NCBI RefSeq assembly: GCF_965641715.1
Contig: NZ_OZ282453.1
DNA length: 64,000 bases
Source of the DNA: Escherichia coli
GTDB lineage: Bacteria > Pseudomonadota > Gammaproteobacteria > Enterobacterales > Enterobacteriaceae
Strand: one strand, 5' to 3'
Shown here: positions 57,001-60,000 of the stretch, one piece after another
Layout of the letters: every line of letters begins with the position of its first letter
How positions within the stretch are numbered: the stretch's first letter is position 1
Made by a program: the position numbers

Positions 57001-60000
57001 GAGTGTGGAACCAAGATAGCACTCGAACGACGAAGCAAAGAACGCGAAAAAGCGGAAAAGGCAGCAGAGAAGAAACGACGACGAGAGGAGCAGAAACAGA
57101 AAGATAAACTTAAGATTCGAAAACTCGCCTTAAAGCCCCGCAGTTACTGGATTAAACAAGCCCAACAAGCCGTAAACGCCTTCATCAGAGAAAGAGACCG
57201 CGACTTACCATGTATCTCGTGCGGAACGCTCACGTCTGCTCAGTGGGATGCCGGGCATTACCGGACAACTGCTGCGGCGCCTCAACTCCGATTTGATGAA
57301 CGCAATATTCACAAGCAATGCGTGGTGTGCAACCAACATAAAAGCGGAAATCTCGTTCCGTATCGCGTCGAACTGATTAACCGCATCGGGCAGGAAGCAG
57401 TAGACGAAATCGAATCAAACCATAACCGCCATCGCTGGACTGTCGAAGAGTGCAGGGCCATCAAGGCGGAGTACCAACAGAAACTCAAAGACCTGCGAAA
57501 TAGCAGAAGTGAGGCCGCATGACGTTCTCAGTAAAAATCATTCCAGATAACAAGGGAGAAGGCGCATGGGCATAAGAGAACTAAACCTCACCAAAGAGCA
57601 GCACGAGTGGCTGAATGGCTGGCTTGAACTGTGGGGAGCATGGGTTTATTCAGGTCGTCTGGAAAAGCGCATGAGCAGCGTAATAGCTAAGTTCATGGAG
57701 AGCGTAGAGCCGGGAAGAGTTATGACAAGGCCAATGTGTAATGATGATGATGGAATGTTGATTTCTCAGGTCGTCGATTCCGTCATGTACATTGACAAGA
57801 AAGCCTTTGGCATCCTCCTCAGCTACTACGCTCATGGTTCATCTAAGCGAGCAATTGCATCCTACTATCACGCGACTGCAAAGCCACGCAAGATGTGTGG
57901 ACGTGGTGGCGAGGGATGGAGAAAACCTTCACTGGCAACCTGTAGAAACGAAATTGACGACATCCTGAAAGCGTCGTTATTTGTTTTGTACCAGCCAATG
58001 CAAAATGCTTTCAAAATGCGTAAACGTGTTGAGAAAGTTAAGCATGTTGCTGTTAAAAGCCTTGACATGCAATTAGCCATTTAGCCATAATTAGCAGGTA
58101 AGCTGCCGTTAATGACTCTTAAGTTGCAACGGTGGCTTTTTTATTTGGGTCAGTCGTATAAAGGTCATTACGGAAGGCTGTTAACCTTCTTATCGTGGTT
58201 CGAGTCCACGCTGTCCCGCCAAATATACTGGTTTAGCTCCAATGGTAGAGCAGTCGCCTTGTAAGCGAATGGGTAGCGGTTCAAGTCCGTTAACCAGCAC
58301 CATAACTGAGCCGTAGCCACTGGCTATCCTGAATTCATCAGTGATAGTTATGCTGCGGCCTTCTACACATGACCTTCGTGAAAGCGGGTGGCAGGAGGTT
58401 GCGCTAACAACCTCATGCCGTTTTGCCCGTGCATATCGGTCACGAACAAATCTGATTACTAAACACAGTAGCCTGGATTTGTTCTATCAGTAATCGACCT
58501 TATTCCTAATTAAATAGAGCAAATCCCCTTATTGGGGGTAAGACATGAAGATGCCAGAAAAACATGACCTGTTAGCCGCCATTCTCGCGGCAAAGGAACA
58601 AGGCATCGGGGCAATCCTTGCGTTTGCAATGGCGTACCTTCGCGGAAGATATAATGGCGGTGCGTTTACAAAAACAGTAATCGACGCAACGATGTGCGCC
58701 ATTATCGCCTGGTTCATTCGTGACCTTCTCGACTTCGCCGGATTAAGTAGCAATCTCGCTTATATAACGAGCGTGTTCATCGGCTACATCGGTACTGACT
58801 CGATTGGTTCGCTTATCAAACGCTTCGCTGCTAAAAAAGCCGGAGTAGAAGATGGTGGAAATCAATAATCAACGTAAGGCGTTCCTCGATATGCTGGCGT
58901 GGTCAGAGGGAACTGATAACGGACGTCAGAAAACCAGAAATCATGGTTATGACGTCATTGTTGGCGGAGAGCTATTCACTGATTACTCAGATCACCCTCG
59001 CAAACTTGTCACGCTAAACCCCAAACTCAAATCAACAGCAGCCGGACGTTACCAGCTTCTTTCCCGTTGGTGGGATGCCTATCGTAAGCAGCTTGGCCTG
59101 AAAGAGTTCTCTCCCAAAAGCCAGGACGCTGTTGCGCTGCAGCAGATTAAGGAGCGTGGCGCTTTGCCGATGATTGATCGCGGTGATATCCGTCAGGCTA
59201 TCGACCGTTGCAGCAATATCTGGGCTTCACTGCCGGGGGCTGGTTATGGTCAGTTCGAGCATAAGGCTGACAGCCTGATTGCAAAATTCAAAGAGGCTGG
59301 CGGAACGGTCAGAGAGATTGAGGTATGAGCAGAGTAACCGCGATTATCTCCGCTCTGGTTATCTGCATCATCGTCTGCCTGTTATGGGCTGTTAATCATT
59401 ACCGTGATAACGCCATCGCCTACAAAGAACAGCGCGATAAGGCCGCATCCATCATCGCTGACATGCAGAAGCGTCAACGTGATGTCACTGCACTGGATGC
59501 TAAATACACTGGAGAACTGGCTGATGCCAAAGCCACTATTGATCAGCTTGAGCGCGATGTTGCTTCTGGCAAACGTCGGTTGCAGCTCAACGCAAGCTGT
59601 CCCGCGAACGGAGCGACCAGCACCGGCAGCCTGGGCGATGCTTCCAGCCCCGGACTTACTGACTCCGCTGAACGGGATTATTTCACCCTCAGAGAGCGTA
59701 TCGTCACAGTGACGAAGCAGGTTGGCTATTTGCAGGACTACATCAACACCCAATGTCTGAAATGAGCTATGATTCTGTTTTCAATTATTAAAGGAAGATA
59801 ATAATGACTAATAGAGAAATAGCTCTTGAGCAAGCCCTTATCGCTGTTATCGGCGCTATCCGAGAAGAGGATGCTGATTTGGAGCGCATAGCAGTTAGGG
59901 CTGACATGCTTTTGCTGGATAATTCACCTTATCGAATAGTTGAGCATCCCCATGTCTCAAACGCTTTAACTGAAATTGAAAAAGCACTTAATTTCAAAAA

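Follow-up and report, generated by a model that had tools for sequence, protein, structure and literature searches.

The late regulatory region of phage 21 was reportedly described by Guo, Kainz and Roberts in 1991. A module of the same kind, in which the gene of a Q antiterminator is followed by a late promoter (pR'), a terminator (tR') and genes for tRNA-Asn(GUU) as well as tRNA-Thr(UGU), is the subject of the present analysis; it lies in a stretch of 64,000 nt from Escherichia coli (GCF_965641715.1, contig NZ_OZ282453.1), referred to below as the window. That SfI, Sf6, ST64T, PS3 and phage 21 have Asn(GUU) and Thr(UGU) tRNAs downstream of Q has already been reported (PMC3636060), and the arrangement, annotated in Sf6, phage 21, SfI, BTP1 and many other phages, is known and not unusual. 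As annotation the module carries little weight, having been described since 1991 (phage 21) and 2004 (Sf6), and prophages of E. coli, Shigella and Salmonella often carry it. What makes it of interest at present is work of 2025-2026, in which phage tRNA-Thr(UGU), that of phage 21 included, replaces host tRNA cut by the nuclease Old and in which PARIS targets Thr(UGU) and Asn(GUU). The only local peculiarity is a rare allele of tRNA-Thr with A at position 1 (A1), which offers a natural test of the importance of the first acceptor pair for this replacement of host tRNA.

Among the closest described systems, phage 21 (OL657228; Q21 structures 6jnx and 6p18-6p1c) has the same gene order as the window, including a stump of ninH. 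It shares with the window the sigma-dependent pause element (SDPE), an almost identical terminator, tRNA-Asn at 100% and tRNA-Thr at 75/76, and it differs in the -10 box, in the initial transcribed bases, in the first base of tRNA-Thr (G1 in phage 21, A1 in the window) and in the lysis genes, which are pinholin and SAR endolysin in phage 21 and of the lambda S/R type in the window. Sf6 genes 59-64 (AF547987; Casjens et al. 2004) share with the window the repeats, the terminator, the tRNA pair and lambda-type S and R. In Sf6 an IS911 interrupts ninG, and ninH and ninI separate that gene from Q, whereas Q of the window stands directly after ninG; the tRNA-Thr of Sf6 carries G1, and Sf6 is a P22-like podovirus while the closest genome match of the window has tail genes of myovirus type.

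The Stx2c phage 2851 resembles the window in having cargo directly behind pR'-tR' under Q control, and this agrees with an earlier note on the window, which had described the slot as an insertion point of tRNA and toxin cargo in Stx-type lambdoid phages. The Q of phage 2851 is of the Q21 type and its leader and terminator are those of the window, with promoter, Q-binding element (QBE) and terminator of phage 21 followed by the first 24 nt of a tRNA-Asn of the window type. Unlike the window, which has no toxin, it then carries tRNA-Ile, tRNA-Arg and tRNA-Arg (ileZ-argN-argO) and stx2A/B. The 24-nt stump (locus L093, about 2550-2573; the loci compared carry L numbers) stands directly after the terminator and passes into unrelated sequence. 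Judged by its sequence, the Stx2c late leader looks as if derived from a phage 21-type module.

It is very nearly certain that the locus in the window is the late-gene regulatory module of a lambdoid prophage of the phage 21/Sf6 type, the mechanism of Q included. Its elements are the following.

57566-58084, plus strand: Q antiterminator of the Q21 family, Sf6 gp59 type, 172 aa (PHROG, Pfam and PDB matches).
57878-57891, minus strand: putative CII-binding site of the antisense promoter paQ, TTGCGTGGCTTTGC, which fits TTGYNNNNNNTTGY and lies where the site is annotated in the phage 21 record (by homology only).
58062-58091, plus strand: late promoter pR', with -35 TTGACA (58062-58067), an 18-nt spacer and -10 CATAAT (58086-58091); 11/12 consensus matches.
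58072-58087, plus strand: 8-bp direct repeats ATTAGCCA and TTTAGCCA, in the place of the QBE of phage 21; putative Q-binding sites.
58098-58105, plus strand: predicted transcription start (58098) and SDPE TAAGCTG (58099-58105), after the phage 21 annotation.
58100-58146, plus strand: intrinsic terminator tR', with an 11-bp stem (AAGCUGCCGUU / AACGGUGGCUU) and a U tract, UUUUUUAUUU, of which the first two U close the stem (homology and folding).
58147-58221, plus strand: tRNA-Asn(GUU), 75 nt, CCA encoded, discriminator G73 (ARAGORN; Rfam 55.3 bits).
58227-58302, plus strand: tRNA-Thr(UGU), 76 nt, CCA encoded, A1 allele (ARAGORN; Rfam 55.3 bits).

The protein at the Q position is, as the earlier note had claimed, 172 aa long and unlike lambda Q, with 32 identical positions in a global alignment of 218 columns. 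Q-family profiles do match it: PHROG 943 ("anti-termination protein Q-like") with E 2.6e-93 and Pfam PF06530 (Phage_antitermQ) with E 1.5e-25, while the PDB chains of phage 21 Q (6jnx, 6p18) match residues 1-162 with E of about 1e-92, and it is a Q21-family antiterminator. Zero NCBIfam models matched Q, even at E up to 1, and its naming rests on Pfam, PHROGs and PDB for that reason. It is identical to Sf6 gp59 at 171/172 residues, the single difference being the annotated start codon. Compared to phage 21 Q there are 139 identical positions; residues 1-102 are the same except for R94H, residues 103-162 have diverged and a C-terminal extension of 10 aa is present. At the nucleotide level the identity to phage 21 is about 99% over the first 270 nt and then falls to 55-80%. 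The joint of this mosaic (57830-57900) adjoins the CII/paQ-type site TTGC-N6-TTGC on the minus strand.

In the Q21 structures the torus is located at the RNA exit channel; H2 and the linkers on either side of it (H1-H2 and H2-H3) make it up, with Ser29 and Thr54 among its residues, and an HT[loop]H motif reads two 8-bp subsites of the DNA (bioRxiv 10.1101/651190). The torus segment is conserved in the window Q, with Ser29 and Thr54 falling within the near-identical residues 1-102, and the diverged part, 103-162, takes in the B1-B2 loop region (residues 105-121). The two repeats in the promoter spacer, ATTAGCCA and TTTAGCCA, also differ in sequence from those of the phage 21 element (QBEu ATTGAGCA, QBEd AATGAGCA), and we expect that they are bound by the window Q. 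A kept torus together with an altered C-terminal half and altered repeats fits a swap of the DNA specificity of Q, and would give the Q21 system, for which structures have been solved, a specificity swap that is ready-made.

The promoter pR' was the best site in a promoter scan of the region and aligns with the annotated pR' of phage 21 and Sf6; a site of the pR'/qut type, for which the earlier note had pointed to 58085-58146, is present at 58062-58146. The pause element TAAGCTG matches the SDPE of phage 21 exactly, and the start was placed at the preceding base, as annotated in OL657228. The terminator tR', annotated as such in phage 21 (PMID 1704887) and Sf6, is invariant in 5/5 aligned sequences except for one loop base and the length of the U tract, and its hairpin folds with -15.7 kcal/mol (z -2.2). 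A simple terminator scan with a loop limit of 8 nt missed it, and tR' was established by homology and folding. Since tR' ends one base before tRNA-Asn and leaves no space in which the tRNAs could have their own promoter, their transcription requires read-through of tR'. In lambda biology this read-through is supplied by Q; N-modified polymerases arriving from pR may offer a second route.

According to the proposed mechanism, which for Q21 has been demonstrated in published work, pR' would fire constitutively and RNA polymerase would pause at the sigma-dependent pause element. In the absence of Q the polymerase would stop at tR', giving a leader RNA of about 46 nt. Q would bind the two 8-bp direct repeats in the promoter spacer and load onto the paused polymerase, where its N-terminal torus would narrow the RNA exit channel such that terminator hairpins could not form. 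With tR' read through, transcription would continue into the tRNAs and on to the genes of lysis and morphogenesis, and the tRNAs, made by read-through only, would then be cut out of the late transcript.

ARAGORN returned exactly two tRNAs in the 64-kb window and Rfam model RF00005 scored each of them at 55.3 bits (gathering score 29, E about 1.6e-10), so that the two tRNA-like sequences folded by hand in the earlier note are tRNAs with the anticodons given there, GTT and TGT. Both form a cloverleaf with a 7-nt anticodon loop. The tRNA-Asn copies of phage 21, Sf6, phage L and JLK-2012 show 100% identity to that of the window, and tRNA-Thr is identical to that of phage 21 at 75/76 positions, the difference being at position 1 only. 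The stem mismatches that had been noted are real: in Asn they are U4.U69 and U13.U22, in Thr A1.C72 and G27.A43. All except A1.C72 are conserved family features rather than signs of decay, because they are invariant over 26 collinear haplotypes, the set used for the analysis of diversity and stem variants, and are kept in Klebsiella phage Mulock. To judge the tRNAs as pseudogenes from their stem mismatches was accordingly rejected for all mismatches but A1.C72. The nucleotide diversity among the haplotypes was as follows.

tRNA-Asn: 0.005.
tRNA-Thr: 0.017.
Leader from pR' to tR': 0.027.
Leader upstream of S: 0.031.
Third-codon positions of Q: 0.040.

The last two values served as neutral proxies from the flanks. 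The anticodon arm is invariant in the haplotypes, and the stem variants of tRNA-Thr are compensatory (G5-C68 to U5-A68, 3 loci), wobble (U2.G71) or improving (A50-U64). In Mulock the homologues keep U4.U69 and the odd D arm, and the acceptor pairs 6:67 and 7:66 co-vary. Both tRNA genes are under structural constraint, as seen from the low diversity and the compensatory changes. In E. coli the identity elements are G34, U35, U36 and G73 for tRNA-Asn and G1-C72, C2-G71, G35 and U36 for tRNA-Thr. tRNA-Asn of the window has every one of its elements; tRNA-Thr has C2-G71, G35 and U36, yet A1.C72 in place of G1-C72.

Chance cloverleafs and attachment-site debris were ruled out by the high scores, the encoded CCA, an identity of only 62-69% to host asnT and thrU and the conservation across hosts. 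This distance from the host genes (approximately 62-69%) speaks likewise against the idea that the tRNAs compensate for a host tRNA gene disrupted by integration of the prophage, a general possibility for tRNAs of temperate phages that was raised in a 2026 preprint on Old (10.64898/2026.07.10.737580). The window holds these two tRNAs only and therefore none at the left end of the prophage near torI, the late operon lies behind a terminator and should therefore be nearly silent in the lysogen, and phages that differ in their integrases, as well as P1-type phages, which do not integrate, have the same pair. We regard this explanation as highly improbable.

The A1 allele replaces G at position 1 of tRNA-Thr (58227; L002 20728) and breaks the 1-72 pair; phage 21 and Sf6 have G1. 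Among the loci compared it was found in the window and three others only, A1.C72 being the sole pair-breaking stem variant in the 26 haplotypes, and of the matching records in E. coli at most 7/365 are identical at 99% or above; the allele is rare. Rfam scores the G1 allele at 61.5 bits and the A1 allele at 55.3 bits. In five E. coli genomes with an identical stretch of 81 nt RefSeq annotates tRNA-Asn and omits tRNA-Thr, and in the one-mismatch genomes listed it annotates both. The possibility left by the earlier note, that tRNA prediction tools would return no tRNA or pseudogene scores only, was thus not borne out by ARAGORN or Rfam and was touched for tRNA-Thr only, by RefSeq leaving the A1 copies unannotated. 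One may read these observations as decaying cargo, with tRNA-Thr of the window a recent loss-of-function allele and the pair carried neutrally. The rarity of A1, its being the only variant to break a stem pair, the fall in Rfam score and the omission by RefSeq agree with such decay. However, 55.3 bits is still far over the threshold, the remaining positions are identical to the tested tRNA-Thr of phage 21, tRNA-Asn is untouched, A1 is present in several genomes and IMG/VR contigs and therefore has persisted, and a terminal mismatch need not abolish charging. We consider decay unlikely, and the A1 tRNA-Thr may be fully functional.

As to the role of the pair, a better fit than codon supply is offered by recent work on two tRNA nucleases. 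P2 Old cuts host tRNA-ThrU where CNG motifs are paired, in positions 28-30 and 40-42. Cells are rescued by phage tRNA-Thr(UGU) species, and tRNA-Thr of phage 21 (G1 allele) protects from Old and works when expressed alone from a plasmid (PMC12445682, 2025). Its resistance was ascribed to a shortened anticodon stem and C28U/G42A (PMC12445682); the sequence of this "tRNA-Thr21" was here taken from the phage 21 genome record and not from PMC12445682. Old also cuts host tRNA-Asn(GUU), more slowly. AriB of PARIS cuts Lys(UUU), Thr(UGU) and, secondarily, Asn(GUU) at U36-A-A-U39-C40|N41; a substitution of U39 abolishes the cutting, and the Lys, Thr and Asn tRNAs of T5 together neutralise PARIS (PMC12409363). 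The anticodons in the window match these targets, Thr(UGU) being prime for Old and AriB and Asn(GUU) secondary for both. When the anticodon arms were aligned with those of host thrU and asnT, positions 28-30/40-42 and 36-41 read as follows.

Host thrU: CTG / CAG at 28-30/40-42 and UAATCA at 36-41.
Window tRNA-Thr: TCG / CGA at 28-30/40-42, plus G27.A43, and UAAGCG at 36-41.
Host asnT: CGG / CCG at 28-30/40-42 and UAATCC at 36-41.
Window tRNA-Asn: AAG / CTT at 28-30/40-42 and UAACCT at 36-41.

Both window tRNAs are without the anticodon-stem determinants of Old and AriB. tRNA-Thr has the same anticodon arm as the phage 21 tRNA-Thr (G27.A43, U28-A42), and tRNA-Asn is predicted to be resistant to the nucleases as well. 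In the counter-defence role that we propose, both phage tRNAs, having kept the anticodon and lost the nuclease determinants, would replace the host tRNAs that have been cut. With the Lys/Thr/Asn set of T5 (against PARIS) and the phage tRNA-Thr(UGU) species (against Old) the window shares the anticodons, the changes at 28/42, 39 and 41 and the shortened anticodon stem of Thr. Unlike the T5 set, it has two tRNAs without tRNA-Lys(UUU), the primary PARIS target, and these belong to a temperate phage and stand behind a Q-controlled terminator; as there is no tRNA-Lys in the window, full escape from PARIS is not expected. Gam is a known trigger of Old (PMC12445682; 10.64898/2026.07.10.737580), and with gam and a matching tRNA pair on one prophage the window holds a natural example of a temperate phage that carries both trigger and candidate antidote.

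The same tRNAs might instead supply decoders for codons over-used in the late genes, with no defence system involved. Codon usage was compared using 40 annotated core K-12 genes as the baseline and late genes from a nearly identical prophage (L002); the host part of the window was discarded as a poor baseline, with ACA making up 21% of Thr codons in a stretch that includes the 2639-aa upaE. ACA is used in the late genes at 12.0 per 1000 codons compared to 5.7 in core K-12 (2.1-fold, p 1.5e-5), Asn codons at 46.5 compared to 36.1 per 1000, and in the K-12 stretch retrieved there is one tRNA-Thr(UGU) gene, thrU, all of which is as codon supplementation would have it. However, Asn is decoded by an abundant host tRNA of multiple gene copies, and AGG (3.3-fold), AGA (2.5-fold), GGA (2.15-fold) and ATA (2.0-fold) are over-used to the same degree as ACA or beyond it, while no tRNAs for them are carried; ACA is thus not the rare codon in greatest excess. 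The SfI authors likewise gave ACA as 17.3% in the phage and 7.1% in the host, but found no bias that accounts for tRNA-Asn (PMC3636060). Supplementation does not predict the systematic loss of nuclease motifs from the anticodon stems, and in the study of Old host tRNA-Thr, including tRNA-ThrU, gave little or no protection whereas phage tRNAs protected (PMC12445682). It explains Thr weakly and Asn poorly, and as the sole function it is rather doubtful to us; modest help in the decoding of ACA, a codon twice as frequent in the late genes as in the host, would be compatible with replacement of cut tRNAs.

Several points weigh against counter-defence and the scheme built around it. A single viral tRNA-Thr did not rescue lambda from Old, and the preferred Old targets listed in the same 2026 preprint are Gly, fMet, Val and Pro and not Asn (10.64898/2026.07.10.737580). 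About half of the phages with the same Q are without the tRNAs, which are therefore dispensable, and, with the use of ACA in late genes doubled relative to core K-12, a supply of decoders may contribute. G1-C72 is an identity pair for threonyl-tRNA synthetase in E. coli tRNA-Thr, and because of this the A1 copy may be weakened. For this copy of the pair, counter-defence is a prediction from sequence, and recognition of ATTAGCCA/TTTAGCCA by the window Q is likewise a prediction, the position being homologous and the letters changed. Taking both sides together we lean, with some reserve, towards a counter-defence role of the Asn and Thr tRNAs, and the explanation as a whole, composed of module identity, Q mechanism and tRNA counter-defence, appears to us quite probable.

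In relatives without the tRNAs, the space behind tR' is not empty. A filler is found in lambda (L086, NC_001416, about 977-1143) and in tRNA-less phages with the same Q (L016, L023, L003 and L029, about 3078-3380), in size classes of 155, 163, 199, 209, 297 and 814 nt. It consists of a hairpin, GCACAAC-AGGTAAGAGCA followed by a hypervariable insert and TGCTCTT..GTTGTGC, and then a tRNA-like module that is closed by GTTGTGC...GCACAAC or, with compensatory changes, by GTTGTGG...CCACAAC, plus C and CCA. The CCA end of the filler coincides exactly with the CCA end of tRNA-Thr in the window, and the 209-nt class has canonical D and T arms. Neither Rfam nor ARAGORN called the filler module as a tRNA. 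The insert of two loci (L029 3104-3150, and L071) contains a type I hammerhead-like core made up of CUGACGAG, stem II, CGAAAC, stem III and GUC, which RF00163 scored at 24.7 bits, short of its gathering score of 34 (E 7e-4, with 341 nt searched).

The fillers bear on a third explanation, by which the tRNA-shaped RNA behind tR' acts as a processing signal: RNase P and 3' trimming would detach the leader and set the 5' end of the late mRNA, and decoding would be secondary. It is in line with this that lambda and the tRNA-less phages of the same Q have a filler ending where the CCA of tRNA-Thr ends, that the 3' module of the filler is closed by an acceptor-like stem of 7-9 bp and then C and CCA, and that this stem changes in a compensatory manner (C:G to G:C) between size classes, one of which has canonical D and T arms. 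Against it, processing of the filler is hypothetical, the filler was called neither by Rfam nor by ARAGORN, and the strict conservation of anticodons and identity elements across hosts (GUU with G73; G35, U36 and C2-G71) exceeds what processing would need; in addition the plasmid-expressed tRNA-Thr of phage 21 is functional alone. We judge such punctuation to be quite improbable as the reason for the pair. Counter-defence and the fillers can be combined, tentatively, in a joint reading to which we give somewhat less than an even chance. Asn/Thr would be a dedicated cassette against Toprim tRNases (P2 Old and PARIS AriB), in which Asn is also resistant and whose place behind tR' provides the late operon with replacement decoders of its own. 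The lambdoid slot behind tR' would always hold a tRNA-shaped RNA, in lambda an undescribed tRNA-like module that ends in CCA and follows a hairpin with a hypervariable insert, with a hammerhead-like core in some prophages.

Over the 1061-nt region Sf6, HF4s and CurroJimenez_Bas106 have 98% identity to the window, and the Salmonella phages SPN9CC, BTP1 and others about 96%. Many records of these phages annotate both tRNAs, and the Sf6 record annotates Q, pR', qut, tR', tRNA-Asn and tRNA-Thr as phage 21-like. Part of the region was matched in 1491 of 5426 complete E. coli genomes, and about 359 carry the Asn-Thr junction. Among 80 IMG/VR loci whose Q shows an identity of 98% or more, the tRNAs are present in about half and absent in about half. 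A subset of loci (L012, L028, L030, L033, L036, L054, L055, L057, L061, L068, L073 and L078) carries about 711 bp of inserted DNA (about 3020-3730) that lies after the end of Q and before the terminator part of the leader and would separate pR' from tR'.

The order Asn then Thr recurs in the unrelated phages P7, Cyrano and Mulock. The P1-type phage P7 (L090 520-670) has the two tRNAs with the same anticodons and the same 5-nt spacer as the window, but their sequences differ (Thr about 80% identical), P7 Thr keeps CUG/CAG and P7 Asn keeps U39, and the context is not lambdoid. Cyrano, with a genome of 108 kb, has Asn then Thr with a 2-nt spacer (L091 273-425). Mulock has Asn-Phe-Thr-Arg before the holin (L092 601-920), the Asn and Thr being homologous to those of the window. 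In JLK-2012 (L085 965-1040 and 1044-1118; also L028, L033 and L036) the second tRNA is a chimera of a phage-type 5' part and a thrU-like remainder; it has the broken anticodon-stem pairs A27.C43 and C28.U42, scores 49 bits with Rfam and was not called by ARAGORN. It is followed by tRNA-Gly(UCC), and Gly(UCC) is a listed Old target in the 2026 preprint. The second tRNA of Salmonella phage L (L084 988-1059), with a Thr-type acceptor stem and a loop read by the depositors as Leu(TAA), scores 42 bits with Rfam, was not called by ARAGORN and may be a degenerate or re-targeted copy.

Downstream of the tRNAs lie the lysis genes.

58303-58544, plus strand: untranslated leader of lambda type upstream of S, 233/242 identical (96.3%) to lambda 44945-45185.
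58545-58868, plus strand: holin/antiholin S (S107, with the S105 start at 58551), PHROG 126, dual ATG starts.
58852-59328, plus strand: endolysin R, PHROG 90.
59325-59765, plus strand: Rz spanin, 146 aa, 98 identical positions of 154 compared to lambda Rz.
About 59524-59712, plus strand: Rz1, embedded in the +1 frame of Rz, with a lipobox-like LLANVGC.

The cassette, taken as lambda-identical in the earlier note, is lambda-like in its leader, in S (106/107 aa) and in R (155/158 aa); it is not identical, Rz being a different allele, and over 1422 nt the overall identity is 90.1%. The absence of a toxin gene between Q and S holds, as only the 242 nt of lambda-like leader separate tRNA-Thr from S.

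The module belongs to a lambdoid prophage in a segment of the E. coli chromosome, with its left end near torI at about 44.8 kb of the window. The closest genome match is E. coli CRECJHTL34, in which a chromosomal prophage shows 99.96% identity to the window from 56054 to the end; the late genes of that prophage are of the contractile-tail or myovirus type. Upstream of Q the prophage has the following genes.

48502-49179, minus strand: exo, lambda-type.
49176-49961, minus strand: bet, lambda-type.
49967-50263, minus strand: gam, lambda-type.
50339-50608, minus strand: kil, lambda-type.
56908-57522, plus strand: ninG/rap, 204 aa (PHROG 171 NinG/Rap, E 5.4e-128), the last intact nin gene before Q.
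57519-57575, plus strand: ninH remnant of 18 codons that overlaps the start of Q, the counterpart of a 57-nt fusion ORF annotated in phage 21.

In phage 21 the ninH remnant reads MTFSVKTIPDHKGEGAWA and is given in the record as "10 N-term ninH codons fused to 7 other codons"; the window shares this stump. PADLOC gave no match in the terminase genes or in those that lie between them and the lysis genes. One of the latter, a 180-aa gene on the minus strand (60376-60918) between the lysis genes and the small terminase subunit, occupies a typical moron position, and its product is annotated as a DUF2441 protein in a near-identical RefSeq genome.

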